This document shows, in pieces, positions 24,686 to 63,716 of a DNA stretch of 64,000 nucleotides. Numbering within the stretch: the first letter of the stretch is position 1; every line of letters starts with the position of its first letter. Position numbers and translations under genes: made by a program. The stretch spans positions 288,001 to 352,000 of the forward strand of contig CAXXTF010000002.1 in NCBI GenBank assembly GCA_963665775.2, written 5' to 3'. A model generated the notes under the pieces. It saw only the letters and a program-made list of their open reading frames with translations, was not told the origin of the DNA and searched no databases. Origin of the DNA: Dehalococcoidia bacterium. Its GTDB lineage: Bacteria; Chloroflexota; Dehalococcoidia; SM23-28-2; RBG-16-64-32.

Positions 24686-24709
24686 GCACACTAAGCAGAC
24701 TTAGTGTGC
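24686..24709. other. Palindromic site S1 GCACACTAA-gcagac-TTAGTGTGC (putative recombination site)
   Basis: Perfect 9-bp IR with 6-bp spacer between convergent genes. Confidence 0.6.
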
Positions 24710-24784
24710 CGTGGGGTGCCGAAATTCCAGGCGTGTCTGGAGGGGGTTATGCCTCTCCCACAGGATTGAGCGAACTGCTCTTCC

Positions 24785-25570
24785 CTACGGGCGCTTTATC
24801 CCTGCCAGGGTGACGCCGCGGGTGTCAAAATCCTTGGCGTCCGACTCATGCTTGGAGCCGGAGAAGACATCGACCTCCGGGCCCCAGAGGATGTCCGTAA
24901 ATCCAACATGCTCAAGGACCCAACGCCACTCTGCTTCCAGCAGAGCACCGGCAATTCAGCCAGACCAAAGATCGATATCGTCCTTAGCGTCCTGAGGGAC
25001 CTCTTGGTGGACAACGATATCTGCGATCTGGAAACGGGCGCCGGACTTGAGGACGCGGTTGACCTCCTGCATGACCGCCACCTTGTCGGGGCAAAGGTTG
25101 ATGACGCCGTTGCTGATAACGACATCGATAGTCCCGTCGTCCGCGGGGAGCGCTTCGGCCAGACCAGGGCGGAAGTTGACGTTCGTCAGGCCCGCTTGTC
25201 GGGCGCTCTCGGCGGCCTTATCGAGCATGGCAGGGGTCATATCCACGGCGATCACCCGCCCGCTAGGTCCAACTTGGCGGGCGGCGATCAGTGTATCGAT
25301 GCCCGCGCCGCAGCCGATGTCGAGGACGGTCTCACCGGGGTGAAGTTCGCCCATGGAGAAGGGATTACCGGTGCCGGCGAAGGACTCGACCGTGGCGGGA
25401 GGAAGGGACGCGACGAGGGTGGGGTCGTAGCCGAGCATGCTAGCGAGGGGACGGCCCGTATGAAAGTGGAAGCCCTTCTCGGGTGTGAGGGCTACCTCGG
25501 CGTACTTATCGCTGATCTGAGACCGCAGCGCCTCAGCGTCGACACGTGCAGCCCGAACCTCATTGGCCAT
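24785..25570 (-). CDS. Arsenite methyltransferase-like selenoprotein (in-frame UGA at 24956-24958)
   Basis: SAM motif LDIGCGAG, SNGVINLCPDK; WSG-TGA-IAGAL aligns with ArsM WxGCIAGAL; the frame continues 56 codons; hairpin CTCTGCT-GGA-AGCAGAG follows the UGA. Confidence 0.88.
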
Positions 25571-25869
25571 GGCCAACTGCCTTGCTGGGTTTAACCTGGT
25601 GGGGTCTAAGCTTAGCACCGACGACCGATGGGATCAATCTTAAAGAGCCTGCGTGGGGACGGATTGCAGGCTCTGTCACTAGACGTCACGACCCACTATC
25701 GACAGACTCTGACTCAGGGGCGGCGGATATGGGCGAGGCGGCTACACGATGAAGTTATAATCTACCTTCGACGGGAGTGCGCTAAGGGTTCTCTCGCCGG
25801 CTACCATCCGAAGCAAGGAAGATCACCCGGCTAAGCGATTCCCGCTGGCCTCGGGGCGCTAAACTCCGT

Positions 25870-26131
25870 CTATTCAGACTGAGGATTGATCTCAGGAATG
25901 GGATTCGGCTCGACATGGAAGCTTGGCAGCCAATTTAGCCACGACGGGAAGTACCAATTGGTCTTCCCCAGCAGCTGCATGCTTGCCGGCACCAAGATTG
26001 AACGAACTATGGTGGCGTCTGCCAGGATCGCCACGCCGAGCCCGAAGCCCATCTGCTCGAACATTACGAGCTTTCCACTGGCGAACCCGCCAAACACGGC
26101 AACCATTATCAGAGCCGCGCCGGTGATGAGC
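25870..26131 (-). pseudogene. MMPL-family C-terminal fragment
   Basis: RLITGAALIMVAVFGGF...DATIVRSILVPASMQLLG..NWYFP. Confidence 0.8.
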
Positions 26132-26905
26132 CTACCCGGAGAGCGAGGCCTCGTCGCCGGAGACAGCATGAATGGTGCCGGCTTCGTCACGCACCAAGAG
26201 GCGGCCGCTGCTATCGATATCCTGCGCGATACCCTGTAGCGCCCCATGTCGACGGTGCACCACGACTCGGTTCCCAAGAGTATCGATCACCTCTCGCCAT
26301 CGCGCAGCGACATCGCCGCCCTGGACCCACTCCGCGTACCCCGCGTCTAGGCGCCGGAGCACCGCCAGAGCTGCGGATTCGGGATCGACGTACACTCCAG
26401 TCTCCGCCAGATGGCTCGTGGCGATATCATTGATTTCGGGGTGCCGGTCCAGGTCCAGCTTTAGGTTCAGCCCGATGCCAGCGACCATGGCAGTGGCACC
26501 AGACGGATCCGGCTGGCTCTCCACGAGGACGCCTCCCAGCTTCTTCCCTTCATGGTGCAGATCATTTGGCCACTTCACGGCTTCAAGGGCGCCAGTGAGG
26601 TCCTGGATCGCCCGGTGCGCTGCGAGCGTGGCGACCATGGTCAGCGCGGACACTTCGATCGCTGTGGAGGGCCGTAGGATCACCGATAGCAGGAGGGAGT
26701 CGCCCCTGTCCGAAACCCAGCGCCGGGCGAAGCGTCCACGGCCGTTGGATTGGAACATCGCTTGCACCGCCGTCCCATGCTCGGCTCCCTCGCCCACGAG
26801 CGCCCACGCGACATCCATCGTCGAGGTCACCTGGTCGTAGCCCTTAAGTGTTCGGCCGATGACGAGGGCGGGGTATGAACGTCTCCAGGCTGGTTCCGGA
26901 TCCAT
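26132..26905 (-). CDS. birA: Biotin-[acetyl-CoA-carboxylase] ligase (no HTH)
   Basis: QSNGRGRF, KWPND, KLGGVLVE, GIGLN. Confidence 0.9.
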   Translation of the reverse strand: MDPEPAWRRSYPALVIGRTLKGYDQVTSTMDVAWALVGEGAEHGTAVQAMFQSNGRGRFARRWVSDRGDSLLLSVILRPSTAIEVSALTMVATLAAHRAIQDLTGALEAVKWPNDLHHEGKKLGGVLVESQPDPSGATAMVAGIGLNLKLDLDRHPEINDIATSHLAETGVYVDPESAALAVLRRLDAGYAEWVQGGDVAARWREVIDTLGNRVVVHRRHGALQGIAQDIDSSGRLLVRDEAGTIHAVSGDEASLSG

Positions 26906-26913
26906 CGCGGAGC

Positions 26914-26942
26914 AGTTTATAGACCCTGACCCTGCGTGTCAA
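26914..26942 (-). promoter_or_regulatory. Leaderless sigma70-like promoter of birA
   Basis: TTGACA-17-TAAACT, 8 nt before the ATG. Confidence 0.6.
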
Positions 26943-27078
26943 ACCGGGGTTTGATTGTCAGCCTCCTCACCGGAGCCTGTCTCGACGTGCTCGAAGGTCG
27001 GGTCCGCTTGAGTTCTTGCGCTGAGGCGCATGGAGAGCGGAGGCTTCGATCTGGCACCGTTAAGAGAGGTCGGGGACG

Positions 27079-27125
27079 TGATGGGCTCTATTAAACGCTA
27101 CCACACGCTACGTTTGTGGAGCTAT
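27079..27125 (-). mobile_element. Diverged IS3-family right-end remnant
   Basis: TGATGGGCTCTATTAAACGCTACCACAC resembles the ends at 17052 and 34515. Confidence 0.55.
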
Positions 27126-27245
27126 GGCCGGCGAGCGCTGGTCCACGCGCACTTGAGAATAGAGGGCTGACAGCGAGTGCCGGGCGATTAGTGAGGGCAC
27201 CCTATCTCTGTGTGAGTCTAGCAGCGCTGTCCGCCACACGCTAGC

Positions 27246-27267
27246 AACACGATCGACACATAGTGTG
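27246..27267. other. Palindromic site S2 AACACGAT-cgacac-ATAGTGTG
   Basis: Same consensus as S1; spacer is the exact reverse complement of the S5 spacer. Confidence 0.55.
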
Positions 27268-45507: not shown

Positions 45508-45819
45508 TGAGAGGGTGCAAAACTAATTCGTATCTGAGGACGCGGATGGTGGATCGGAGGCCAGCTCTCGGGTAGCGTTCGCTACAAGGAGGATCTGGCC
45601 AATGAATATCTACTCTCTTTGCTCATCGGCACCATAGGTAACGCCTTGCGAGCGCGGCAGGACGTCGAACGTGAGAACCTGGCCCTGCGCCATCAGCTCG
45701 CGATCCTGATACGCTCGGCGCGGCGCCCGCGCCTTGAACCGGCGGACCGCCTGCTCTGGTGCTGGCTCTCGCGCCGCTGGTCGCGCTGACGCTCAGCCGT
45801 TGTCGTCGTCCAACCCGAC
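45508..45819 (+). mobile_element. Degenerate 5' part of an IS related to 45820-46991
   Basis: IR-like TGAGAGGGTGCAAAACTAATTCGTAT; ENLALRHQL...RLEPADRLLW with an internal stop. Confidence 0.7.
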
Positions 45820-46991
45820 TGTAGGGGGCCAATTGTCATCCGTATTTGAAACAGGTCAAGCAGCCAGCCATTCGTACTCGTGATGTAGTCCCCCCAGCAC
45901 CGGCCGGGCAACGATCCGCCCGACCCGCGGCGGGCTAGCCCGTGCAGGTGGCCCGGTAGGAGTCTCAAGATCCAGAGTGCGATGAGGTCGCCCGTTGTTG
46001 TAGTGGACCTCGTACTCCCCCAGCACGGCACGAAGATGCCTCTCATTGATGATGATCAGGTGATCTAGGCACTCTCTGCGGAGTGTGCGTATCACGCGTT
46101 CGGCGATGGCGTTCGCCTTGGGAGCTCGGATCGGGGTGAGAATGACTTTGATACCCAGCCGGGCCGCCCTTGGGTTGAAGCTTTCGCCATAGCAGCAGTC
46201 GCGATCACGGATGAGGTGCTTCGGCTGCTTACCCCAGGGTGTGGCCTCGATGAGCGGTCGCCATACCCACGCGGCATTAGGGTGAGCAGTCACGTTCAGA
46301 TGAACCAACCGGCGCCGGCTATGAGAGATGAAAAGGAACACGTAAAGAGTCTTAAGGGCCAGCGTCTGAACAGTGAAGAAGTCGGCGGCCCAGATAGGGG
46401 GCGCGTGGTTCTTGAGAAAGGTTCGCCAGGACTGAGATGGCGGGCCGCGCCATCTTGATCGGCGGTAGCGCCGCACCGTTCGAGAGCTGATGTCGTAGCC
46501 GAGCTTGCGGAGTTCTCCCACTATGCGGAGGCTGCCCCAGCGGGGATTCTCGCGGGCCAGGCGTCGGATGAGGTCGCGGACCTGCGTCGGAATGCGTGAT
46601 CGGCCCGGAGATCTGTTGGACCGGCACTTCCAGGTCCAATACCGTCGCCAGGCGGTGCGTTGCCAGCGGATGACCGTCTCCGGCTGGACGAGAATCACCG
46701 CCGATTGCCAGCGAGACCAGAGCCTTGAGAGGAACGACCAGAACAGGCGGTCAGCGGGTTCCAGGCGGGTCATACGGTTGGCGGGAAAGGACGGCGAGTT
46801 GCTGTCGGAGGGCAATATTCTCCAGGACGAGGTGTCGCTGAGATCTAAGGGTGGCGCGCAGGGCAGAGCAGAGGAGCAGAGAGTACGTGATCAATGGCAG
46901 GCCTCCGTGGAGAAATATTGCCTCCACGTTGGCCAAATCAGATCAGTGCGTCAACCTCCTCTAGATACGGATGACATTTTGCCCCCCTACA
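45820..46991 (-). mobile_element. IS481/IS3-superfamily (rve) element with a frameshifted transposase
   Basis: TGT...ACA ~26-bp IRs; WAADFFTV, IRDRD, PKANAIAER. Confidence 0.88.
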
Positions 46992-50356: not shown

Positions 50357-50445
50357 TCCTCACCTCGCTGTCAACCTTCATCTATCTACTATGTACAGGA
50401 GAAAGGCGCACTTACTGGACGAAGGATATCCTTATCGCGCCTTAG

Positions 50446-52149
50446 CCCGAATCCACCGAAGGACACGGATGGACGGCGTGAGGACAGCGGAAGGGGGTGG
50501 GTGAGGGAGCTACAGGGGAGATGGCCTGGGGTCTTGGGGTAGATGGGAGGCCGGCGGACGGTCTTCAGTCGCCGCACAGGGCCCCTAAGGCCCTATGCGG
50601 GAGTTGCGATGCGCGGGATGGCGAGAGGATACGCAGCAGGGGACTCTCGCGACCGGGGTGGCGCGAGATTGCGGGGACGTTGGGTCAGTTGCAGGCTGGC
50701 CGTCAGGCCGGGAATGGAATGGCTTGCAGCCGGGCCAAGGCGCGACTGAACTGGGTTTCCCAAGGCCAGCGCCGGGGGAGATGCAAAGTGAGGCGGCGCG
50801 CCGAGCGGGTGATCCGTCCCACCAGAGCGAAGACCCGCCGCCTGAGGGTCTTGGTGGTCACGATCTGCTGACCCAGGCCGATGCGGGCTGTCCAGCGGGC
50901 CAGGTTATGCGCCATCACCTGGCCCGCCAGCCAGGCGCCGTTGGCGGCGAAGCGCCCCGACGGCATGTGGTTCAGCCCGACGCCGTACTTGAGGTCGCGT
51001 ATGGCGTTCTCGACCTCGGCGTGGCGGCGATGATCGGCCTCCAGTTCCAGCGTCTCCCCATCGCGGTCGGTGATGAAGGCGTGATAGCTGTATCTGGCGA
51101 AGAGGGCGAGCTGGGAACCGGGCGTCGGCTTCACCCGCCGGACAATGAGCCGCACCGGCGCGGCGTCCGGCTTGGTCTGGAACGGGGTGTAAGTCGTCTC
51201 GGCGACATCGGCGGCGCCGTCCATCCAGTAGGGAATGGGAGTCCAGTCCTCCTCTGGTATCGCCTCGATCAGGTCCCGCAGGCTGGCGCGCTGGCGGATG
51301 GTGATAGAGAAGCGGACATCCATTTCCCGGCAGGCGGCAACGACAGTGTGGGCGTAGAAGCCGCTGTCGGCCCGCACCGTGAGTTGTCCCCTGGCCCCGC
51401 CGTAGCGCACCCGCCCCACCGTCTCACGCAGGAAGTGGGCGGCGCCACGGGCGGTGTTGGCCCGGCCCTCGCGCAGCCGGGACATCAGCACCTCGCCGGT
51501 GCCGGCGGCAATGGCCAGCAGCGGGTGATAGCCGCGGGCGCCGGTATAGCCGTGGTGGCGCGCTCCCTCCTTGGCCAGTCCATAGGTCTCGCAGATGGTC
51601 GAGTCCAGGTCGATGGTCAGGGGCGAGTCGCCGGGTCCGGCCCCAGCGGCCCAGGCCCGGGCCAACAACTGGCGGCTCACGCGGTCGAGTTGACGGACAT
51701 GCCCCCACCGGAAGCTGCGCAGGAAGGTCCCCAGGGTGGATGGCGCCTTGACCACGCAGCCTAGAACACCGACCGTCCCACCAGCGCGCAGCGCATCGGC
51801 GTCGTCGATGCAGTCGCCGCCTGCCAGCGCGGAAGCGACCAGCGTCAGCATCTTGTCCCCAGTGTTCGCCCGTCCCGGCGCTCCGCCGAGGTCAAGGTGA
51901 TGGTCGACGAGTTCCCGCAGGCCCAGGTGCCGGGCTAGGGTGGCTGGCAGGAGCAGGCCGGCATTGGCCACCAGGCGATGGTCGTCAAAGAGGATGCGGA
52001 TACGGTCGGGTTTGTTCTGTGGCAGCATCTATTGGGTGCTCCTTGTTTCCGGGCTGGTTTCTGTTCCAAAACCATTATCCCAGATTCAGAGGAGCACCCG
52101 ATGGCTTCTTCAAGGACTGTCCCCAAGGCCGTCCTTCGGTGGATTCGGG
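50446..52149 (-). mobile_element. IS1380-family element, second copy (transposase 50703-52028)
   Basis: Near-identical to 39138-40841; flanks CTTAG/CTAAG do not match. Confidence 0.95.
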
Positions 52150-52420
52150 CTAAGCCTAGCCAAACCGTATCAACTCCCCCGCCGAAGATCAAGTATTGTA
52201 TTCGCGTCGGCCCATCCCAAGCCCTCTCGTACACCTTCTGCTACTGCGTCTGGGTAACGCGGAGGCAGGTTGCGTAAAGAAGCTGCCGAAGTAAGAAGTA
52301 AGATGATAACTGACCGCGTTTCGCTCGTCCTCCCCGTATCTGAGCCACAGCGCACAGGGCGAGATGCCTCCTAAGCAGCATCTTTGATCTACGGGCTGCC
52401 GCGACATCCGTGGCTGCCAA

Positions 52421-52440
52421 ACACTATCAGGTCATGGTGT
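52421..52440. other. Palindromic site S6 ACACTAT-caggtc-ATGGTGT
   Basis: One mismatch to the consensus; overlaps the stop codon of 52432-52690. Confidence 0.5.
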
Positions 52441-52690: not shown

Positions 52691-53069
52691 GGTTCTGTCA
52701 GAACTCAGGGCGCGGGGGTAAGCTTGTCTCAATGTAGGAGAGGAGCTACCGATGAACTGCCCGCATTGCCGATCGACGGCCACCAGCAAACGGAAGTACC
52801 GCACCGCCCTGGGCTACCATAGGTTCTCGTGTAGGTCTTGCCACCATCGATTCAACGAACGTACCCGTACGCCCTACAACGACCTCCAGTTCCCCAGCGA
52901 TGTCGTCCTGTTGGCGGTACTCTGGCGGCTGCGCTACAAGCTCGGGTTCCGCGATGTCGCCGAACTGCTCCTCCAGCGCGGTTATGAGGTCACGCACGAG
53001 ACGGTGCGAGCCTGGGAGTTCCGGTTTGCTCCTCTTCTGGGCGAACGACTGCATGCCCGGCGCCGCGGC
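52691..53069 (+). mobile_element. IS6-family 5' fragment
   Basis: IRL plus MNCPHC...; fused to the recombinase fragment. Confidence 0.88.
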
Positions 53070-53541
53070 GCACGACGCGCTCCTTGTTCCCCTTGCCGAT
53101 GACCCGCACGTAGTCGTAGCGGGAGCTGGGGTCAATCTGCATCGATAGAAACTCGGACGCCCTGAGCCCCGTGTCGAACAGCACCATGATGATGGTGTGG
53201 TCCCGCACTCCCATCTTCACCTTGATATCGCAGGAACGCAGTAGCGTTTGGACATCCTCGACAGTCAGCGCAGGTATGATGCGGTTCGGTATCCGAGGCG
53301 AGGGGATGGCTTTGACCGGATTGTCGGGCCGCTCGCCCTGAATCACGAGCCAGCCGAAGAAGCGACGTAGGGAACGATACCGTTGAGCCACGGTGGCGGG
53401 TGCCGGTTTCTTATCGCCAAGCTTGTACTCTTGCAAGAAGTGACGAATATGCTCAGCCGTCACGACTGTGGGGTCATCACCAGGTAGCCCCATCTCTGCC
53501 AAGAACGCCCGGAGCTGGTCAGAGGCCAACCGTTGGACCAC
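53070..53541 (-). pseudogene. XerD-like tyrosine recombinase, truncated at both ends
   Basis: RSLRRFFGWL, DNP, RDHTII..FDTGLRASE, GKGNKER; HxxR and Tyr motifs absent. Confidence 0.85.
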
Positions 53542-53614
53542 CTGCTGCTTACTCCGGGAGTCTAGCCATCAATGGCGGGGGCCACGGGGGCGCCAGCCCC
53601 TTACATCTAAGTGA

Positions 53615-53661
53615 TGGAGGGCCCGGTGGGATTCGAACCCACGACTCTCGGATTAAAAGTC
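53615..53661 (-). pseudogene. tRNA-Lys(TTT) 3' half (att core)
   Basis: Reverse strand GACTTTTAATCCGAGAGTCGTGGGTTCGAATCCCACCGGGCCCTCCA; no 5' half. Confidence 0.88.
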
Positions 53662-53670
53662 ACGCTCTCG

Positions 53671-53872
53671 GGGCCTCATTGCTAAGGCCTCAAATTCGAA
53701 AACTGGGGTGAGACTGGGGTAAGAACAGGGTGAAATCGGGACCTCGCTGAGGGGCCCAATTGCTAATAGGCTGGATTCAAAACTGTGGTAAGCCTGCCGT
53801 GAATCTTCGGTGGATTTACGTGAGCGATCGCCTCCGCCGCGAGGGCCTTAATTGCTAAGGTAATTGTTAAGG
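53671..53872. repeat. Four direct ATTG(C/T)TAA repeats, putative integrase-binding sites
   Basis: At 53678, 53759, 53851 and 53863; three are preceded by GGGCC. Confidence 0.6.
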
Positions 53873-53889: not shown

Positions 53890-54906
53890 TCAGGCTAATC
53901 GGGCGTTCCCAGAAATCAGACTACCCTCCCCCAGCCTCCCTTTCAATCGATCTGCCGGGCTGAACAGGACGTGCGCCTGCGCCGCTTTTTCAGCGTCGTA
54001 GGTCGCCGTGTAGCGCCGTAGCATCGCCGGCGTGGAGTGGCCAAGAAGCGCCTGTACGTCAATCTCCCTCGCTTGCTGCTCGATGGCCCAGGTGGCGAAG
54101 GTGTGGCGGAAGCGATGCGGATGTACGTGATGTAGAGAGGCCTTCTGGTCCAGCCTCTGGAAGATGGTCCGCAGGGCAGTCCGGCACAGTTGTCCGCCCC
54201 GGCAGGTCAGAAATAGCGGCCCGGGGCCACCGCTTCGGAATCGTCCCAGGTAGTGCTGGATGGCCCGGCGCGCCTCATCCCCAAACCGGACCACCCGCTG
54301 TTTGTTCCCCTTCCCGTGACTGACGTGCATGCGCCCACGCTCAAAGTCGACCTCATCCAGCAGAAGGTTACACAACTCGGTCGCCCGGAGGCCGGTGTCC
54401 AGTAGGACAAGGATGAGGGCCCGGTCTCTGCCCCCTTTGTGGGTCGAGGGATCGCAGTAGGCGAGAAGGCGCAGGACATCCTCCTGGGAGAAGGGCCGAA
54501 TCACCTTCTGAGGCACCTTGATGTTCTTCACCTTGGAGAACGGGTTCGTGGCGACGTAATCGTGACGCAGGAGCCAGGAGAAGAATGCCCTGGTCTCCCG
54601 CTGCCTCCGCCACTGGGTCATGGCGGAAACGCCAGTATCGGCCACGCACCCCAGGAACTGGTAGACGTGGGCAGCAGTGAAGGAGGCTGGATCCTCGGGT
54701 AGTCTCTTCTGCCCGATGACATTCGTGAAAATACCAAGGGTCTCCCGATAAGACCGGATGGTCTCCTCCGACTTCCCCTTGATGCGACAGGAGGTGAGGT
54801 AGAGTTCGATGACCTCCGTCAGGTCCCGCTGGTGGCTGCCGTTGCCGTCGCCGTTTCTCTCTATGCTCTCCCCCACACTTAGATAAGAAGGCCGTGTTGC
54901 ATTCAT
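53890..54906 (-). CDS. XerC/D-like tyrosine recombinase, intact catalytic set
   Basis: TGLRATE, GKGNK, HRFRH, LLGH, RRY; no obvious IntI-specific insertion. Confidence 0.92.
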   Translation of the reverse strand: MNATRPSYLSVGESIERNGDGNGSHQRDLTEVIELYLTSCRIKGKSEETIRSYRETLGIFTNVIGQKRLPEDPASFTAAHVYQFLGCVADTGVSAMTQWRRQRETRAFFSWLLRHDYVATNPFSKVKNIKVPQKVIRPFSQEDVLRLLAYCDPSTHKGGRDRALILVLLDTGLRATELCNLLLDEVDFERGRMHVSHGKGNKQRVVRFGDEARRAIQHYLGRFRSGGPGPLFLTCRGGQLCRTALRTIFQRLDQKASLHHVHPHRFRHTFATWAIEQQAREIDVQALLGHSTPAMLRRYTATYDAEKAAQAHVLFSPADRLKGRLGEGSLISGNARLA

Positions 54907-55123
54907 CACTCTGCTGCGGCGGCAAGTCAAGCGCAGGAGCGAATCGGGCGGATTGGCCCAATTCAGGCTGCCGGAGAGGGGTCGGCACACACTAGAACGA
55001 GCGAGGTGCGCACACAGGCGCGCTACCTTTTCAGCTTCGGATGTATTTTGGCCCCCCACAATCGCTCACTGCCCTTTAGCCGGATGTATGATTGTGCCAC
55101 CTATCTGTCCAAAGGAGGCTGCC

Positions 55124-55264
55124 ATGCAGGGTTACTGCCTGAAGTGCAAGGCGACCAGAGAAATGCGTGACGCAAAGGCGGTCACCCTCAAGAACGGACG
55201 GCCAGCAACCCAGGGGTCATGCCCGGTCTGTGGAGGCAAGATGTCCCGAATAGGCAAGGCGTAG
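55124..55264 (+). CDS. DUF5679-like Zn-ribbon protein
   Basis: YCLKCK...KNGRPA..G.CPVCG; GGAGG RBS. Confidence 0.8.
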   Translation: MQGYCLKCKATREMRDAKAVTLKNGRPATQGSCPVCGGKMSRIGKA

Positions 55265-55383
55265 AGCCTTCCTCTAGCCGCCACACGACCCCAATCTAAT
55301 CCTGCCGGTCGTCACGGCCCATTCAGACAGTGTCGCGCTGGCTCTCCAGGCTTACGATAGCGACGGAGTATTACCCCCCACCC

Positions 55384-55412
55384 TTGACAATGCACAGCTA
55401 TATGCTTATACT
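55384..55412 (+). promoter_or_regulatory. Leaderless sigma70 promoter
   Basis: TTGACA-17-TATACT, ATG 6 nt downstream. Confidence 0.75.
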
Positions 55413-55418
55413 CGCCAC

Positions 55419-55778
55419 ATGCGAAGAAAACCGGGCGCCCTAATACCCCTTGAAATATCTATCCTAGGGGCAGGCATTGACCTGAAACTAGGTGGAGTGG
55501 AAGAGTTCCACGGGTTCGGTATCGCCAAGGAGATTAGGGATCGCAAGGGCGCGCGTTTGCTGACAGCCCATGGGACGCTGTATAGGGCCTTGGGCCGCAT
55601 GGAGAAGGCGGGCCTACTGGTCAGCCAATGGGAGGACCCGAACTTGGCCACCAGCGAGAACCGCCCGCGGCGTCGCATGTACCGCGTCACAGCGGCTGGT
55701 GAAGGGGCGCTCTCGAAGGCTCAGTCCGCGAGGCAGCGGCAGACGCTGAAGCTAGAAAGGGGACCGGTCACATCATGA
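55419..55778 (+). CDS. PadR-family transcriptional regulator
   Basis: HGFGI, GTLYRALGRME, RRMYRVT. Confidence 0.9.
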   Translation: MRRKPGALIPLEISILGAGIDLKLGGVEEFHGFGIAKEIRDRKGARLLTAHGTLYRALGRMEKAGLLVSQWEDPNLATSENRPRRRMYRVTAAGEGALSKAQSARQRQTLKLERGPVTS

Positions 55779-56407
55779 AGTCATTCACGAGCGCCTGGTC
55801 TATGAGACTCGTCCGTTGGTGGCTAAACCTCTACACCGCCGGTCTGCCTTCCGAGGTCAAATGTGAGCGACTGGCCGAGATCGAGTATGACGTCTGGGAG
55901 CATGAACGCAATGGTGAGGCAGAGGGTCAGCGCTCTGACGTGATACAGGGCGAGATATTCTTCCGGTTCCTAACGGGCATACCCGCCGACCTGCTGTGGC
56001 GGCGGGAGCAGGCAGGAGCCGAGAGACGCTCCAAAGAGGGCAACATGGTCTTAAAACAGAGTGGAAACGCGACAACGTCGATGGGTTTCATCCTCGCGGG
56101 AGTGCTTCTGGCGGCAATATATATGATCGGCGGCGTGTCGGTTTCGCTCGGATGGGCAAATAATGGTGACATACCAAGATTCTGGTGGGCGTTCATAGGC
56201 TTGCTACCAGGCGCCATGATTCTGGTGGGACTCTGGGCGAGTATGCGGTCACCACTGCTCGGCGGCATCCTGATAACGGTCGGAGCGGTGCCCCTGGCCA
56301 TTATGTTTTACTGGACCATAATCCTACCCCTCCTGGCCATGACGGTAGTGATATTTGGCGTCGTCAGAGCCATTGAGTTCGCCAGAGAACGTCGTACCCC
56401 ATCATAA
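55775..56407 (+). CDS. PadR-associated membrane protein
   Basis: Coupled to PadR; four C-terminal TMs. Confidence 0.75.
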   Translation: MKSFTSAWSMRLVRWWLNLYTAGLPSEVKCERLAEIEYDVWEHERNGEAEGQRSDVIQGEIFFRFLTGIPADLLWRREQAGAERRSKEGNMVLKQSGNATTSMGFILAGVLLAAIYMIGGVSVSLGWANNGDIPRFWWAFIGLLPGAMILVGLWASMRSPLLGGILITVGAVPLAIMFYWTIILPLLAMTVVIFGVVRAIEFARERRTPS

Positions 56408-56436
56408 CCTCGTCAGGAGGTCTCGCGATTAAAGGA

Positions 56437-57915
56437 ATGACCGCGGCACTCACGTGCGTCCTGCTGCTGGCGCTCGGCACGTTCGCCACCGCCTGCGGTG
56501 ACAGTGATGAACTTACACTTAAGGAGTACTTCCAGCGGGTTGAGGAGATACTTGGTGACTCCGATAACCGGGCCGAGGCGCTGGAAGGCGCGTTCCCCGG
56601 AGCCTTCGAGGAGCCCGCCGCAACTAGCGACTTTTTCAGGGCATCAGCAACCATCTTCGGCGAGGCCAACGATAAGATGGACGACATCGATGCGCCGACC
56701 GAGGTTCAAGAGGCCCATAACAAATTCGTGGCCGCCACGGTAGGTTTACTGGATGTCACAGAAAGCATCGCCGACGGGCTCGCAGATGTGGGTTTAGCCT
56801 CCGAGTTTGGAGGGCTGCTCGAGCTCAAACAGCCGGAGTTTGACGCGGCTAACGAACGGATGGAAGCCGCTTGCCGAGCGCTGCAGTCAATCGCTGACGA
56901 TAACGGCATCGCCATCGACCTGGGGAGCGTCGATCGGGACTGTGATGCCCTGCAAGTCGACGCCTCAGGAGCACCTGTCCCACTAGAGACCCCAGCGCCC
57001 CCGGTAGTCAGGCGAACACCGCCGCCTCAGCTCCTCATCGTTGGCAACCAGATACAGAACACTTATGGAGAGCGTGTGGTGTTGCGTGGGGTGGCCATTG
57101 ACCAGCCAACTCTCCTGGCTAATTCCCCGAGGGTGGGGCACTTCGCCGCTGAAGACTACCGTGTCCTGGCTGATGACTGGGGCGCCAACATTATCAGGGT
57201 ACCAGTTTATCCGCGTTCCTGGACATCGGACCCGCTGTACATGGAGAAGTATCTTGATCCTCTTGTCCAGTGGGGAGGGGAGTCCGGCATCTACATCTTC
57301 CTGGGCTGGCGCGCCCACGGCAACCCAGTGACTGGCCAGGAGGAGAAGCCTTATCTCAGTCCCGACCTGGAGCTAGCAGAGTCGGCCCTCACGGCCATGG
57401 CCGAACGATATCGGGACAAACCGTGGGTGCTCTACGGCACATTCAACGAGCCGACCTATATCTCTTGGTCAGAATGGAGGCCAGTAGCGGAACGGCTGGT
57501 TGATACCGTCCACGAGGTCAACCCCGAGGTTGTGGTCTTTGTCTCCGGTGTTGATTGGGGCTACGACCTCAAAGGGGCCATCAAAGACCCCGTACGCCGA
57601 AATAACATCATCTATGAGACGCATCCGTACCCCGGCAAGGGCGAAGGATGGAAGGGTGTACTGGACGAACTCAGAAAGACCACCCCTGTCTTCCTCGGCG
57701 AATGGGGATTTGAACCTGGCGCCGAAGATAGAAACCTTCGCGGAACCGCCGAGAAGTACGGAGACCCCTTGCTCCAATATGCAAAGGAACGCAACATCGG
57801 CTGGACGGCCTGGCAGTGGCGCCTCCGCTATTCCGAGCTTGGCATGCTGGAGTCCTGGGATGGCTACAAACCGACCGAATGGGGGCTCTTTATCAAAGAA
57901 GGCTTGTCTCAGTAG
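56437..57915 (+). CDS. Lipoprotein fused to a glycoside hydrolase family 5 domain
   Basis: ATAC lipobox; GANIIRVP, FNEP (acid/base), HPY, LGEWG (nucleophile), WTAW. Confidence 0.85.
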   Translation: MTAALTCVLLLALGTFATACGDSDELTLKEYFQRVEEILGDSDNRAEALEGAFPGAFEEPAATSDFFRASATIFGEANDKMDDIDAPTEVQEAHNKFVAATVGLLDVTESIADGLADVGLASEFGGLLELKQPEFDAANERMEAACRALQSIADDNGIAIDLGSVDRDCDALQVDASGAPVPLETPAPPVVRRTPPPQLLIVGNQIQNTYGERVVLRGVAIDQPTLLANSPRVGHFAAEDYRVLADDWGANIIRVPVYPRSWTSDPLYMEKYLDPLVQWGGESGIYIFLGWRAHGNPVTGQEEKPYLSPDLELAESALTAMAERYRDKPWVLYGTFNEPTYISWSEWRPVAERLVDTVHEVNPEVVVFVSGVDWGYDLKGAIKDPVRRNNIIYETHPYPGKGEGWKGVLDELRKTTPVFLGEWGFEPGAEDRNLRGTAEKYGDPLLQYAKERNIGWTAWQWRLRYSELGMLESWDGYKPTEWGLFIKEGLSQ

Positions 57916-57948
57916 AAACCTACAAAGGGTTGTAAATGGCCATCAAAC

Positions 57949-57972
57949 GCGCACTATGGCTGAATAGTGATC
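57949..57972. other. Palindromic site S3 GCGCACTAT-ggctga-ATAGTGATC
   Basis: Between the GH5 stop and the PIN gene. Confidence 0.55.
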
Positions 57973-58019
57973 CGAGATGTGAATCGAGCTAAAGCTGGCT
58001 CCTGCTATATACTTCCGGC

Positions 58020-58475
58020 ATGATGTCGGAAGCCGAACACCGCTTGCGGATCGCCATCGACACCAATGTTCTCGTCGCGGCCTTAACTAACTCGGGCGGG
58101 GCCGCAGCGCGGGTCGTCGACGGCTGGGTGGAAGATCGGCTGGATGTCGTCTCCTCAGAGGCCACCCTCCGCGAAGCCAAACTCATTCTTGATTCGCAGT
58201 GGCTGAGACGGATCGTACCGCGCGGCAGGATAGACGCGCTTCTCGAGATGCTCTGGACGCGGTCGATACGGGTGAGTGGAGATCCAATCGAGGGGCTACC
58301 CCTCAAAGACGAAGGCGACCGGAAACTCGTGGAGGCGGCTATACAGGGCAGCGCCTCTTATCTTATTACGGCTGATGCAGAGCTGTTGAAGTATCGAGGC
58401 TACCGGGCGGCAGAGTTCATTAAGCCAACCGAGTTCCTGAAGCTATTCCAATTAGACGTGGCGCGTGAACCTTGA
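58020..58475 (+). CDS. PIN-domain protein (putative toxin)
   Basis: IDTNVLVAA, DEGD, LITADAELL. Confidence 0.88.
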   Translation: MMSEAEHRLRIAIDTNVLVAALTNSGGAAARVVDGWVEDRLDVVSSEATLREAKLILDSQWLRRIVPRGRIDALLEMLWTRSIRVSGDPIEGLPLKDEGDRKLVEAAIQGSASYLITADAELLKYRGYRAAEFIKPTEFLKLFQLDVAREP

Positions 58476-59506
58476 GCAAGGTATCTCGGTTCGAGCGGCT
58501 AAAGAGTAGCCTCGGCAGCCTCCTGCTATCGGCCCTCGCCTTCGTGGCGCTTGTGGCTACAGCCTGCGGTAGTAACGGCACCGTCTCGACCCCGACCCCG
58601 TCGCTCAGCGCCACGCCCGCCACACCGGCGCAGGGCACTTGGCGGGAGTTGGCGCCGATGCCGACGCCGCGGTCTGAGGTGGCGGTCGCTGAGCTGGACG
58701 GTCTGCTCTATGTCGTCGGCGGATTAAACCAGGTTGGTGCTCCGACCGCCACGGTAGAAGTCTACGATCCGGCTACGGACACATGGATGGCGGTAATGCT
58801 ACTCCCGCGCCCTCGTCACCACGCGGCTGCAGCTGGATTTGGCGGCAGGCTCTACGTGATCGGTGGGTTCGAGCAGAGCTTTAGCGACCCCCAGGCGACG
58901 CTGTTCGTGTACGATCCGGCTTCCGACTTCTGGAATGAGAAGGCTCCTATGCCGACCGCCCGAGCCGCCCTCGTCGCCGCCCAGATCAACGGCCGGATCT
59001 ACGCTATCGGTGGCGTCGCTGTTTCCGGAGGCGCTAACTCGGATGCCGTCGAGGTCTACGACCCGGCTTCGGACACATGGATGGCGGCAGCGCCACTCCC
59101 GACGGCGCGGGATCACCTAGCAGTGGGCGTTGTGGATGGCAAGATCTATGTAGTAGGGGGCCGCGCCTCACTCGACTTCAACCGCAACCTAGGCCAGAAC
59201 GAGGAGTACGACCCGACGACGGATCTCTGGATCGAAAGAACGCCGCTTCCGACTGCCCGCAGCGGGATAGCAGCAGCGGTCGTGGACGGGCGCCTATATG
59301 TGGTCGGCGGTGAGGGCTCCCAGGGAACTTTTGACGAGAACGAGGCGTACGATCCAGCTACTGACTCATGGGAGGCGCTATCGCCGCTCCCGACGGCACG
59401 GCACGGGATGGGGGCGACCACTGTCGACGGCACCATGTACGTGCCAGGCGGCGGGCCCACGGCCGGCCTCTCGGTTACTGGTGCGAATGAGGCGTTCACG
59501 CCGTAA
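58472..59506 (+). CDS. Kelch-repeat lipoprotein
   Basis: Six YVxGG...YDP..W repeats; ATAC lipobox. Confidence 0.92.
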   Translation: MSKVSRFERLKSSLGSLLLSALAFVALVATACGSNGTVSTPTPSLSATPATPAQGTWRELAPMPTPRSEVAVAELDGLLYVVGGLNQVGAPTATVEVYDPATDTWMAVMLLPRPRHHAAAAGFGGRLYVIGGFEQSFSDPQATLFVYDPASDFWNEKAPMPTARAALVAAQINGRIYAIGGVAVSGGANSDAVEVYDPASDTWMAAAPLPTARDHLAVGVVDGKIYVVGGRASLDFNRNLGQNEEYDPTTDLWIERTPLPTARSGIAAAVVDGRLYVVGGEGSQGTFDENEAYDPATDSWEALSPLPTARHGMGATTVDGTMYVPGGGPTAGLSVTGANEAFTP

Positions 59507-59516
59507 GCCTACGGTC

Positions 59517-59538
59517 TACACTAAGTTCCCATCGTGTT
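59517..59538. other. Palindromic site S4 TACACTAA-gttccc-ATCGTGTT
   Basis: 10 bp after the Kelch stop. Confidence 0.55.
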
Positions 59539-59609
59539 TGCCGCGGTAAGTGATATTGACGTTGTGAAGATTCGCCTGTTTAATTCATAAGGAGGAAGGA
59601 GGTCTCGTC

Positions 59610-59903
59610 ATGTTCGCGCAGTCAGTGAGAGTGCAGATTCAGCCTGGTAAGCTGGACGACGCGGTTCGCATCTTCACCGAATCCGTGCTGCCTGCTGCCA
59701 GGCAGCAACCGGGCTTCAAGGATGGCTACTTTCTGGTCGACCGGGAGAACAACAGAGCGATAGGATTAGCCCTCTACGAGACCAAGGCCGACGTAGAGGC
59801 GCTCGTGAACAGCGGCTTCTACCAGGAGAACGTTGCCAAGTTCGCCGCCGTCTTCGCGGGGCCGCCCGAGCGCGAGGTGTACGAGGTCGCGGCTCAGGCA
59901 TAG
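59610..59903 (+). CDS. ABM (antibiotic biosynthesis monooxygenase-like) protein
   Basis: QPGKLD, QPGF, EVYEV; strong RBS. Confidence 0.85.
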   Translation: MFAQSVRVQIQPGKLDDAVRIFTESVLPAARQQPGFKDGYFLVDRENNRAIGLALYETKADVEALVNSGFYQENVAKFAAVFAGPPEREVYEVAAQA

Positions 59904-59940
59904 GTCATGAGCCACGTGCGGAGGCAGGATCCGCGAGACT

Positions 59941-60098
59941 CAGGCGATCGAGAACGGTGTCCCGATCTACGTCTGAGGGGGCTGCTCGACTGCCCGTGGG
60001 GTGGTCGAGCCGACCTCCAGGGAAAGAACGCTAAGTTGACCAACCCTCAAGAGTCTGCCGACCTGGTCGCCGCGGCCGACCGGGTGGTTTCAACCTAG
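59941..60098 (+). pseudogene. DsrE-like selenoprotein C-terminal fragment (UxxC)
   Basis: ENGVPIYV-TGA-GGCSTARGV, then a 1-nt frameshift to DLQGKNAK...ADRVVST; long hairpin after the UGA. Confidence 0.75.
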
Positions 60099-60191
60099 GC
60101 CGCGGCCGAGCGAGGGGCCGCGCGCCTCGACTTTGCGGTTTTTTTGCGACCACTATTTGCAGGCGATCTAGCGCATAAGGGAATGCCTGCC

Positions 60192-60215
60192 CAACACTAT
60201 GTGTCGATAGTGTGC
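60192..60215. other. Palindromic site S5 CAACACTAT-gtgtcg-ATAGTGTGC
   Basis: After the DsrE fragment, before the xanthine dehydrogenase gene. Confidence 0.6.
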
Positions 60216-60475
60216 ACGGCGGTTGGACTGCGGATTGCAGCATCAGGTGCGACCATGTCGCCTCCAAGCCCCTTCGCTTGTGTCTTGCTCAAGACCGGGG
60301 CCCACGCTACTGAGACACGGATTGGGCGACGGTGTCCTACAGATCGGGACTGCTCCCGCACGTTGGATGAAGATTAGGCTAGTAAGTTAGGGAAGCGTAA
60401 ACATATAATTAGAGACAAACCATAGCTACAGAGGGCGGCCCTTAAGGCTGACCAAAAGGTTAGAGGGAGTGTGGC

Positions 60476-62767
60476 GTGACGACGATAACCGAAGCCAAGG
60501 GACTAAGTGAATTCAGTGTAGTAGGCACCCGGCCTATCCGCCACGATGGCGTGGACAAGGTGACGGGCAAGGCCAGGTTCGCGGCAGATATCCATTTGCC
60601 TGGCATGCTTTTCGGAAAGATGCTGCGCAGTCCCCATGCCCACGCCCGGATTCGCTCCATCAACACCAGCAGGGCGGAGGCCCTGCCTGGAGTGAAAGCG
60701 GTAGCGACAGCCCAGGACTTCCCAATCATCGAGAATCGAGTTCTGGACGTCTCGGAGACCCAGCAGAACGTCCGGATGCTGGCCGAGAACGTTTTGGCCC
60801 ATAGCAAAGTGCTGTACAAAGGGCATGCGGTGGCTGCGGTGGCGGCCACAGACCCCTACATTGCCGAGGAGGCCATTAACCTCCTCGAAGTCGACTACGA
60901 GGTGCTCCCCAGCGCTCTGACACTGCAGGACGCCATGAAGCCGGATGCACCCCTGCTCTATGACGAGATGACGACAAGGTTTCGAATCGAGCGGTTTGGG
61001 CGCGGGGAGGACACTGGTGTCAAGAGCAACATTGCTGCCCACATCCAATTCAAGCGGGGCGACCTGGAGCAGGGATTTAAGGAAGCCGATGTGATCGTCG
61101 AGCGGGAGTTCACCACTCAGACTGTTCACCAAGGCTACATAGAGCCCCATGCCTCGACAGCCGACTGGGCGCCCGACGGCCACCTCACGATCTGGACCAG
61201 CACCCAGAGCAGTTTCGGCATTCGGGACGCCACGGCTGCCATTCTGGACATCCCCGAATCGAGCGTGAAGGTCATTCCGATGGAGATCGGCGGTGGCTTT
61301 GGCGGCAAGCTCATTACGTACCTGGACCCTGTAGCTGCGATTCTATCAAGAAAGAGTGGACGTCCCGTTAAGATCGCCATGAGCCGAAAAGAGGTCTTCG
61401 AAGGTTCCGGCCCAACATCCGCCGCCCACCTGCGATGCAAGATCGGTGCTACCAGGGAGGGGCGCATCACGGCGGCGCAGCTCTATCTGGCCTACGAAGC
61501 GGGGGCTTTCCCGGGATCGCCGGTCGGCAGTGGGGCTCTGGCAGGCCTCGGGCCTTACAAGCTAGACAATATGCTGGTGGACGGCTACGACGTCGTTTGC
61601 AACAAGCAGAAGGTGCAGGCCTATCGGGCACCGGGGATGCCCCATGGTTGCTTGGCCGTGGAGAGCGTCATCGATGAGCTAGCGGATAAGCTGGGGATGG
61701 ACTCACTGGACTTTCGGCTTAAGAACGTAGTCCATGAGGGGGACCGGATGCCTACCAATGTGGCATACCCCCGTATCGGCTGCGAGGAGTTAGAGATGGC
61801 GATGAAGGCTCACCCACACTACACTGCCCCTCTGGAAGGACCCAACCGGGGCCGTGGGGTGGCCGTGGGCTTCAGGCAAAACGGCGGTGGTGCTACCTCA
61901 GTCACCATGAACCTCAACAAAGACGGTACGGTCAGCCTCGTGAGCGGCGCCGTGGACATCGGTGGCAGCCGGGTCACTACGGCGATGGCCGCCGCCGAGG
62001 TCCTGGGGTTGCGGGCCGAGGACGTGATACCCAGCGTTGCCGACACCGACTCGGTGGGCAGGGCCGGGGTTACGGGGGGCAGCCGGGTCACCTTCGACAA
62101 TACCTGGGCAGCCACCCTCGCCGCTGAGGAGGTCGCAAGACAGGTGCAGGGACGGGCGGCCCTCTTCTGGGAGGTGCAGCCGGGCGATGTGGAGTTTAGG
62201 GGCAGCGTCTTCACCTGCACCAAGGATCCAGAGAAGCGAATGACCTTCAAGGAGGTGGCCGCTAACCTCATGAGCACAGGCGGTCCCATCACCTGCTCTA
62301 CCGTCAACAGGGAGACGGGTGTCGGCCCCACCTTCGGCGGCATGATCGTGGACGTAGAGGTTGATCCGGAGACTGGGAAGGTTCAGATCCTGCGCTGCAC
62401 CAGCTTCATGGATGTTGGCCAAGCTATTCATCCCAGCTATGCTGAGGGGCAACTCCAGGGCGGCGTCGTGCAGGGTATTGGCTGGGCACTCTGGGAGGAG
62501 TACTTCTACTCGCAGGATGGCACCATGCTCAACTCGAGTTTCCTGGACTACCGGATGCCCACAAGCTGGGATGTCCCTATGATCGATACGGTTTTGGTGG
62601 AGGTGCCTCACCATCGCCACCCCCTAGGGGTACGGGGAGTGGGCGAGATACCGATCGTAATGCCGCCAGCCGCAGTCGCGAATGCCGTTTCCGATGCCAT
62701 TGGCGTTCGCATGACGGCACTGCCCATGAATCCCGGTGCAGTATTACAGGCAATGGAGGACAGGTAA
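60476..62767 (+). CDS. Xanthine dehydrogenase/CoxL family molybdopterin-binding subunit
   Basis: DKVTG, LRSPHAHARI, GGGFGGK, AYRAPG, GQLQGG, GVGE. Confidence 0.93.
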   Translation: MTTITEAKGLSEFSVVGTRPIRHDGVDKVTGKARFAADIHLPGMLFGKMLRSPHAHARIRSINTSRAEALPGVKAVATAQDFPIIENRVLDVSETQQNVRMLAENVLAHSKVLYKGHAVAAVAATDPYIAEEAINLLEVDYEVLPSALTLQDAMKPDAPLLYDEMTTRFRIERFGRGEDTGVKSNIAAHIQFKRGDLEQGFKEADVIVEREFTTQTVHQGYIEPHASTADWAPDGHLTIWTSTQSSFGIRDATAAILDIPESSVKVIPMEIGGGFGGKLITYLDPVAAILSRKSGRPVKIAMSRKEVFEGSGPTSAAHLRCKIGATREGRITAAQLYLAYEAGAFPGSPVGSGALAGLGPYKLDNMLVDGYDVVCNKQKVQAYRAPGMPHGCLAVESVIDELADKLGMDSLDFRLKNVVHEGDRMPTNVAYPRIGCEELEMAMKAHPHYTAPLEGPNRGRGVAVGFRQNGGGATSVTMNLNKDGTVSLVSGAVDIGGSRVTTAMAAAEVLGLRAEDVIPSVADTDSVGRAGVTGGSRVTFDNTWAATLAAEEVARQVQGRAALFWEVQPGDVEFRGSVFTCTKDPEKRMTFKEVAANLMSTGGPITCSTVNRETGVGPTFGGMIVDVEVDPETGKVQILRCTSFMDVGQAIHPSYAEGQLQGGVVQGIGWALWEEYFYSQDGTMLNSSFLDYRMPTSWDVPMIDTVLVEVPHHRHPLGVRGVGEIPIVMPPAAVANAVSDAIGVRMTALPMNPGAVLQAMEDR

Positions 62768-62769
62768 CC

Positions 62770-63716
62770 GGTTCTGTCAGAACTCAGGGCGCCAATGCCG
62801 CGGAGATGAATCTCGGTTCGAAATCCGAACCGATTACGCCGCTGCCATCTCCGCCGTCAACGCTTTCTATCTCTCTAGGAAGACTCGACGTCTCTCTGGC
62901 AACGACACCTGCTTGCCAATGGGCGGGCGGATGCGCAAGTACTGACGCAACTCTTCGAACGCCGAGCAGAAGCGCTTCGCCGACTCCATTCGCTTGAACC
63001 CCAGCATGGGGTAGTAGCGCTGTTTTATGGCCCGATGGTCCTGCTCGATACGATTGTTCAGGTACCGGCTCTGCCGGTGCAAGACCTTCCGTCCCAGTAT
63101 CCAGCGGATCGCCTTTCCGTAGGCCGGATGCTGATCGGTGGTGAGGCGCAACGGCTTGTGGGTCGTGACGTCGGCCAGCCGCCGTAGAAAGAGACGGGCA
63201 GCCGCTCTATCCCTTCGCTCACTCAGCATCGAGTCCAGGAGATTGCCGTCCGGGTCAATGGCGCGGTACAGGTAACGCCAACGACCGCTGACCTTCACGT
63301 AGGTCTCATCTAGATACCAGGAGAGACCTCTTGTCTGGCCGCGCCGCCGGGTACGCAGTTGTTCGCCCAGAAGAGGAGCAAACCGGAACTCCCAGGCCCG
63401 TACCGTCTCGTGCGTGACCTCGTAGCCTCGCTGAAGGAGCAGTTCGGCGACATCGCGGAACCCGAGCTTGTAGCGCAGCCGCCAGAGGACCGCCAACAGG
63501 ACGATGTCGGTGGGGAACTGGAGCTCGTTGTATGGCGTGCCGGTGCGCTCGTTAAAGCGACGGTGGCAAGACCTACACGAGAACCTATGGTAGCCCAGGG
63601 TGGAGCGGTGCTTCCGTTTGCTGGTTGCTGTGGATCGGCAATGCGGGCAGTTCATGGGTAGCTCCTCTCCTACATTGAGACAAGCTTACCCCCGCGCCCT
63701 GAGTTCTGACAGAACC
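62770..63716 (-). mobile_element. IS6-family element with both IRs (transposase 62867-63655)
   Basis: IRs GGTTCTGTCAGAACTCAGGGCGC at both ends; DDE motifs; no TSD. Confidence 0.93.

Follow-up and report, generated by a model that had tools for sequence, protein, structure and literature searches.

Site arrays with ordered spacers in Chloroflexota islands point to a probable address-coded cassette exchange by a dedicated tyrosine recombinase

Rows of unrelated accessory modules, bounded by short sites with a variable 6-bp spacer, are known from the dif modules of Acinetobacter; as the accessible parts of the two source papers describe them, these sites have an 11-6-11 layout with a XerC and a XerD arm, alternate in orientation and are served by host enzymes (PMC13141974, PMC12907356). 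Recombination at such pdif sites requires identical or near-identical spacers, and the replacement of a single module between the same flanking spacers has been modelled via a cointegrate (PMC13141974, accessible part). According to the same partly accessible descriptions, spacers repeat within a plasmid, which makes inversions and deletions common and shuffles the configurations. In Dehalococcoides, tandem islands at ssrA are flanked by duplicated 3' ends of the target RNA, and their integration modules encode a serine recombinase, ParB and a methyltransferase, the histories of modules and cargo being discordant; internal sites or a second recombinase dividing the cargo are not described in the accessible part of that report (PMC3146451). 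Here we analyse a stretch of 64,000 nt, hereafter the window, from the genome of a Dehalococcoidia bacterium (G000; 2.35 Mb, 63% GC, two contigs, C1 and C2; window at G000:C2:288001-352000), in which three short sites, S3, S4 and S5, divide a row of unrelated genes that lies next to the gene of an XerC/D-like tyrosine recombinase, Int-B.

We conclude that S3-S5 are probably crossover sites of an address-coded cassette exchange which, judged from sequence comparison, would be carried out by a second tyrosine recombinase, TR-A, on islands of Dehalococcoidia and other Chloroflexota. Our computations establish a site family, spacer classes and their order, unrelated cargo in equivalent slots, breakpoints at the sites and a linkage of the sites to TR-A and not to Int-B; from these we infer that TR-A binds and cuts the sites, that spacers have to match, that two crossovers exchange a block, that TR-A regulates its own gene and that it acts in trans. 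A sequence-only reading of the window had taken the locus for an independently evolved cassette platform built by Int-B. A platform with its own sites that is not an integron stands, whereas enzyme and geometry had to be revised, as the arrays begin at TR-A and the spacers are ordered addresses. Since such addresses are not interchangeable attC-like ends, exchange within a slot fits better than stacking at one attI.

As in the dif modules, shared sites whose 6-bp spacer varies delimit the modules here. Unlike those, the arrays show symmetric 7-mer arms, neighbouring sites that point in the same direction in 87 of 95 cases (8 opposite), distinct spacers, an order kept across families, a dedicated recombinase at the head and a location in chromosomal islands. 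The system works like dif modules, yet its sites are not of their type. With integrons it shares a recombinase, TR-A, whose gene points away from a row of small unrelated genes that varies, and a site beside the recombinase promoter; it lacks, however, the IntI insertion and attC ends, its genes are not co-oriented, and the place of a module depends on its address and not on when it arrived. The arrays are not integrons. The absence of attC ends noted earlier was borne out, with no RYYYAAC..GTTRRRY pair within 30-140 nt on either strand between positions 55001 and 60500. In engineered recombinase-mediated cassette exchange, a heterospecific lox or FRT pair flanks a module, forbids its excision and allows a swap with a matching donor; usually two sites are used there, whereas the arrays form a natural chain of about 10-12 addresses. 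Like the ssrA islands, the islands of G000 carry ParB-methyltransferase and primase-like genes, and Int-B together with its tRNA-Lys piece is a typical representative of the tRNA/tmRNA-targeting islands. In the full-text literature, leaving aside subscription journals and preprint supplements, we found no account of an array that combines ordered spacers with a recombinase of its own. We therefore regard the arrays as a variant of the dif-module kind, and consider the chances to be even that they constitute a distinct address-coded exchange system.

The site family and the order of its spacers

S3 (57951-57970; GCACTAT-GGCTGA-ATAGTGA, 20.7 bits), S4 (59518-59537; ACACTAA-GTTCCC-ATCGTGT, 22.9 bits) and S5 (60194-60213; ACACTAT-GTGTCG-ATAGTGT, 26.3 bits) lie on the minus strand, on which their spacers read TCAGCC (class 9), GGGAAC (class 8) and CGACAC (class 7), respectively. 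That they are real sites, as had been claimed from the sequence, was confirmed: positions 53890-60475 contain three sites of at least 14 bits, against a mean of 0.02 and a maximum of 1 in 300 shuffles. The family motif, ACACTAT-N6-ATAGTGT, consists of inverted 7-bp arms ACAC[T/G]AT around an asymmetric 6-bp spacer, with information only in the arms. When up to two mismatches are allowed, G000 contains 45 matches at a spacer of 6 versus 1, 3 and 2 at spacers of 5, 7 and 8; the matrix finds 56 sites at spacer 6 versus 2-7 at other spacings. The strict pattern occurs in 18 of 41 relatives, its reversed control in none of the 41. Of the classified sites, 53 of 58 are located outside called genes, at a coding density of 80%, and among 68 sites 13 lie between convergent genes and 46 are flanked by a gene start on one or both sides. 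On viral contigs we found four loci on three contigs with 2-5 sites each, too few for counting. A survey of the class with the GACCTG pattern and one mismatch was discarded, as it hit ordinary coding sequence in 104 of 201 genomes, and the strict pattern was used instead; single strict matches in genus g30 turned out to be a different, long palindrome.

About ten spacers recur, none of them palindromic, and the clusters read in one direction and in one order. In G000 these are GTCAAG (1), GGCGCA (2), GACCTG (3), CCACAC (4), GCAGAC (5), GAAGTC (6), CGACAC (7), GGGAAC (8), TCAGCC (9) and TAACTC (10), and 44 of the 45 possible pairs differ at two or more positions. S3-S4-S5, one array among many in G000, correspond to 9-8-7, which is the canonical order read backwards, and the spacer of S4 recurs in three other genomes (G017, G031 and G040). 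A second array piece in the window (24688..27266, plus strand) follows the canonical order with class 5 at 24688, a 6-like site at 25744 (spacer GAAGTT, 12.4 bits) and class 7 at 27247. The same spacers in the same order are found in G015, G029, G031 (three arrays), G033 and G040 (two families). Outside G000, in 116 sequences of 2.0 Mb that were mostly chosen by TR-A, exact spacers yield 46 pairs in 15 runs, of which 44 are concordant and 2 discordant, compared with a mean of 23 and a maximum of 39 concordant pairs in 20000 shuffles; with one mismatch allowed, 83 concordant pairs stand against 8 discordant ones in 29 runs. One complete genome carries 12 sites with 12 different spacers in the 48 kb upstream of TR-A. 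A metagenome scan for class-9 sites returned seven short contigs, of which one keeps the order 7-9 and two show class 10 reversed.

Other lineages (L154, L160, L163, L190 and L191; L200; L201-L202) combine the same arms with recurring spacer series of their own, such as GACCAA, CGCGGC, CACCCG and TCTCAC, CACCGG, CTGGCC, which suggests that several address codes exist across lineages. Further site-like palindromes were also met. A class-6-like site with the palindromic spacer GACGTC lies inside a long perfect palindrome of G000 (C1:629751-629792), which ends a 1.4-kb repeat common with C2:459277-460707. Furthermore, ParB-N6/N4 methyltransferase genes of the island backbone (L003:15306-16550 and L005:2944-4221) contain a site-like palindrome about 60 nt before the stop codon, its arms being constant and its spacer differing by genome (CCGGCA, TCGACA, CCGGGC); it may be either an embedded terminal site or a coding coincidence. 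The candidate class 11/13 site, with four copies within the 3' end of a ParB-methyltransferase gene, was omitted from the order tests because the protein motif may create the palindrome.

Module turnover and the TR-A recombinase

While the frame of spacers is kept, the content of the slots is not. The 91 modules compared include 13 from slot 3-4 that fall into 12 unrelated groups, 10 from slot 2-3 (9 groups) and 7 from slot 4-5 (7 groups). When two modules share cargo (nine pairs, with 12 backbone pairs set aside), six pairs sit in the same or a nested slot. A protein is shared between the upstream flanks of TR-A in 30 of 2211 locus pairs, versus 248 of 2346 for the downstream flanks. Module boundaries coincide with the sites: 42 of 1065 pairs of repeated segments in G000 end within 40 nt of a site, and two copies of a 1048-nt module, 96.7% identical and set among different neighbours, both reach from site 4 to site 5 exactly, an alternative 4-5 module in a third array again ending at site 5. 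In a 5007-nt contig from another study (4 of 17 runs compared), the match to the window begins at 57952, the second base of S3, at contig base 3738, and continues at about 92% identity through the PIN and Kelch genes that follow S3.

The sites are linked to TR-A, two near-identical intact 310-aa genes (C1:766482-767414 and C2:240060-240992) among the 22 PF00589 matches of G000. Both genes are divergent from a class-1 site about 45 nt away, and the arrays that start there run 1-2-3-4-5-7 and 1-2-3-4-5-6-(7)-10. The genome collection contains 254 TR-A places, in Dehalococcoidia, Chloroflexia bins, Tepidiformaceae, Limnocylindrales and some Actinomycetota, and locus counts are based on the best 80 of these. 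Around TR-A homologues, 129 sites were found in 643 kb upstream versus 28 in 655 kb downstream, control spacings giving 14-28 sites over both sides together. In the 170 nt upstream of TR-A, 36 of 79 loci carry a site, versus none of 79 with spacers of 5 or 7 and 5 of 379 control windows. TR-A is present in 7 of 41 relatives and, with at most 11 candidates scored per genome, in 16 of 200 class members; of these 16, 8 have at least two strict sites, versus 7 of the 184 others and 8 of 200 with the reversed control. In G055, the strongest exception lacking TR-A, broken TR-A pieces adjoin the site cluster. At E<=1e-40, 3900 proteins match among 7999 candidates scored, an upper bound for the size of the TR-A family.

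Downstream of TR-A, the commonest shared genes start with a motif like that of large serine recombinases, and one such island gene was confirmed by Pfam. These islands thus have an integrase of their own, which leaves TR-A available for a different task. TR-A and Int-B fall into two distinct clades of a quick tree (SH-aLRT 99 and 100) with IntI1 outside both, and an AlphaFold model of TR-A (pLDDT 66, pTM 0.45) retrieves generic tyrosine recombinases in Foldseek, XerD first. The location of a site in the promoter region of TR-A suggests self-repression.

Three side observations concern the surroundings of TR-A. Upstream of the gene in L102, L103, L117 and L094, a class-2 site abuts the -35-like GAAGTCAAG box, as if the first slot were empty, whereas in G000 the GAAGTCAAG box is itself the spacer of a site. 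An array in L050 (G040:C221:13901-33900; 5-8-6-new spacer) has, at its opposite end, a relative 59% identical to TR-A, which points outward. A TR-A-like gene (37%) on a plasmid of Ca. Chlorohelix was set aside as outside the system, spacer 6 not being enriched there (4 versus 2-5).

In tyrosine recombinases, strand exchange takes place inside the spacer, and the two spacers have to match. Because all spacers of an array differ and point in one direction, its sites could under this rule neither delete nor invert their own modules. A site would thus recombine only with the equal address on another island copy, be it a tandem neighbour, an excised circle or an incoming element. A single crossover at equal addresses would fuse or split islands, while two crossovers at addresses i and j would swap the block between them, so that the order of addresses is kept and the cargo is renewed slot by slot. 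Exchange by two crossovers accounts for a constant frame with changing content, for junctions at sites, for the rarity of duplicate spacers and for near-empty slots. The islands themselves would move by their own integrases, such as the large serine recombinases beside TR-A or, at the far end in the window, Int-B. In this reading, slots 9-8-7 of the window are the far end of an array that sits on a tRNA-Lys island, has been broken up by IS6 and would be served by TR-A in trans.

It is an evenly balanced question whether this amounts to a self-contained addressing system, consisting of one small tyrosine recombinase and 10-12 mutually orthogonal spacers, spread from Chloroflexota families to Actinomycetota bins and representing a third cassette logic. 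In such a system, unrelated islands would cross over only at matched addresses and exchange modules or blocks without deletion or inversion. If true, bacteria would have a natural form of recombinase-mediated cassette exchange whose address code is conserved, slots being swapped between distant genomes while the frame remains stable, and this would explain the hypervariable islands of uncultured Chloroflexota. It would also allow the double-crossover model of dif modules to be tested with a single enzyme, and genome engineering and multiplex cassette exchange would gain a recombinase of 310 aa with 20-bp sites and about ten spacers already set apart in nature.

Several points weigh against exchange by TR-A at ordered addresses. 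The site matrices were trained on part of the sites that they score, S3-S5 included, and the shuffle test overstates the order because the arrays are related and mostly picked by TR-A. The distal order depends on the lineage: class 8 precedes class 6 in G031 and G040, class 10 precedes class 6 in L167, and class 10 is reversed after class 9 in L183 and L188. The linkage to TR-A is incomplete in both directions. The members of genus g3 (G002, G017 and G023) have 3-6 strict sites each and no TR-A match, in assemblies of 240-420 contigs that are 81-86% complete, and G110, G168 and G179 have 3-4 sites and no TR-A match; conversely, many TR-A loci show no site at threshold (e.g. L121, L124, L127, L128, L131 and L134), and 8 of the 16 genomes with TR-A have at most one strict site. 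Three of the nine cargo-sharing pairs sit in different slots, and the first 3737 bases of the 5007-nt contig are free of a window match only among the longest matches listed. Finally, a true class-10 site lies about 150 nt upstream of one Int-B paralogue (C2:1438329), a position that is also in keeping with Int-B as the marker of an array's far end.

Alternative explanations and the role of Int-B

An unlikely alternative, though the one that survives best, is that the sites are of dif type and are worked by the host Xer proteins, as in Acinetobacter, TR-A being a passenger or regulator. The 6-bp spacer is indeed that of Xer sites, sites occur in genomes in which TR-A was not detected, and G000 encodes a recombinase (C1:734636) that groups with E. 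coli XerC/XerD in the quick tree (SH-aLRT 97), apart from TR-A and Int-B. The arms, however, are symmetric and show no C/D polarity, and the motif is unlike the dif site predicted for Dehalococcoides, CTTTTTTATTC-TATAAA-CTATTTAAATC, in the accessible part of the source (PMC3025954). The true dif of G000 was not located: a pattern search with the XerD arm gave one weak match, away from the skew terminus. Moreover, most of the 184 TR-A-negative genomes are at control level for the sites although they need a dif, and the sites are concentrated upstream of TR-A; this linkage indirectly disfavours recombination by host XerC/XerD.

It is rather improbable that the sites are used singly, with small circles integrating and excising at a matching spacer and the order being the inherited skeleton of one ancestral island. 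A few arrays carry a spacer twice (8-8 and 12-12 in G031c, 3/3-like in L105), as single integrations would leave it, and some slots are very short (77 nt in L117). Each integration would nevertheless duplicate a spacer, and duplicates are rare; most modules lie between two different spacers and could not circularise alone under the spacer-match rule, and the replacement of a slot without duplication needs two crossovers.

There is little chance that, as the sequence-only reading had it, the cassettes are recombined by Int-B and the array grows from a half-site resembling attI. Int-B (53890 to 54876 or 54903, minus strand; PF00589 plus a SAM domain) is intact, as that reading had stated, with the catalytic residues R164, K189, H254, R257 and H280 and the tyrosine seen, and it is divergent from the cargo. 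The lack of an IntI insertion was likewise upheld: the R-H spacing is 90 in Int-B and 98 in TR-A versus 131 in IntI1 and 96 in XerD, and the IntI profile TIGR02249 gives 68.6 bits for Int-B and 49.7 bits for TR-A at a cut-off of 265. Neither protein reaches the XerC and XerD equivalogs (Int-B 177 and 167, TR-A 99 and 106, at cut-offs of 335 and 330, respectively). The proposed attI half-site at 54987-55008 (plus strand) did not hold up; it scores -14.7 bits, is not a site of the family and is conserved upstream DNA common to five copies or remnants of the Int-B region. Int-B orthologues were expected to head variable arrays, yet none does so in 14 stretches of up to 20 kb, 11 of which have no site and three of which have one. 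A site upstream of Int-B is found in 1 of 21 loci, namely the paralogue with the class-10 site, which speaks for a link of Int-B to the sites, as do the Int-B-like genes of G017 and G023 with one site within 700 nt. The complete genome G019, by contrast, has five copies of Int-B and no strict site. In the phylogeny suggested as a check of the window recombinase, the Int-B clade of the quick tree stands apart from IntI1, from the XerC/XerD grouping and from TR-A, the separation from TR-A speaking against Int-B as the cassette recombinase.

The role of Int-B is instead explained by tRNA-Lys att pieces. An att core at 53592..53661 (minus strand) comprises the 3' 47 nt of tRNA-Lys(TTT) and 23 nt downstream of it (92.9% identity over 70 nt), the whole tRNA being located elsewhere (C2:1423856), and four direct repeats (A)ATTG(C/T)TAA(G/T) between the att core and the integrase (53678..53871) resemble arm or accessory sites and may serve as such. 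In G000, the repeats and the tRNA piece also follow the two close intact paralogues of Int-B, so that the tRNA-Lys target or its duplicated 3' end lies beside all three intact close copies; the island of one paralogue starts at the whole tRNA-Lys. Outside G000, tRNA-Lys(TTT) or a fragment of it is found no more than about 600 nt away from 8 of 18 copies, and from 5 of the 7 with at least 64% identity. By these genomic contexts, Int-B is most likely the integrase of a tRNA-Lys island and not the cognate enzyme of the sites, with attP x attB integration and excision as its predicted role.

Last, that the palindromes are operators of an island or host transcription factor, or nucleoid-loading sites, rather than crossover points is very improbable: one site overlaps a TTGAC box upstream of TR-A and gene starts adjoin the majority of sites, but this leaves the conserved, ordered and non-repeating spacer unexplained, homology stops at the site to the base, and the sites between convergent genes do not suit it.

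Cargo genes and mobile elements of the window

The earlier gene list is in accord with open reading frame calls and profile searches, the recombinase lying on the minus strand and all cargo genes being present on the plus strand; the closest relatives of the island genes are found among Dehalococcoidia and Chloroflexota. Between Int-B and S3 (55124..57915) lie genes for DUF5679 (55124-55264, by profile search), PadR, a 210-aa membrane protein with no family above cut-off and a GH5 lipoprotein; within this stretch there is no site of the family, the best score being below 6. The module of slot 8-9 (57971..59517) encodes a PIN protein (58020-58475) and a Kelch lipoprotein (58472-59506), that of slot 7-8 (59538..60193) an ABM-like protein (59610-59903), an assignment slightly below the family cut-off, and a DsrE remnant (about 59914-60098). 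This remnant is frameshifted and has no start (E 7.6e-4 with TGA read as U); its in-frame TGA in IPIYV*GGC is selenocysteine-like, and a tRNA-Sec is present in the genome. Beyond S5, a lone molybdopterin large subunit of the xanthine-dehydrogenase family follows (60476..62767, plus strand), in a slot that is interrupted by an IS6 copy (62769-63716). Positions 57849-60650 are identical in contigs from two sequencing runs, which may be the source sample.

The view that the cassettes carry their own promoters is plausible and partly borne out. A scan found two sites versus 2.1 expected; one of them, TTGACA-17-TATACT before padR, is strong, while the rest are not clear, and by eye a candidate, TTGACG-17-TTTAAT, was seen after S4 (59556-59584). 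Co-orientation holds locally in the window and not genome-wide, with 31 genes pointing with and 24 against the spacer direction in 28 modules.

To the left of the att fragment, a class-3 site (52421..52440, GACCTG on the minus strand, 23.6 bits) is part of a neighbouring decayed island, and a truncated third tyrosine recombinase (52990..53541, minus strand) is cut by an IS6 piece (52691-53069) on one side and by att-flanking DNA on the other. This IS6 piece and two further copies, at 33468-34151 and the one beyond S5, break up the islands of the window, as does an identical inverted IS1380-type pair (39134-40846 and 50441-52153). The 36 nt upstream of DUF5679 (55029-55064) are an inverted match to 45816-45851, the end of an rve-type IS (45856-46815), and represent an IS-end remnant in the Int-B upstream region.

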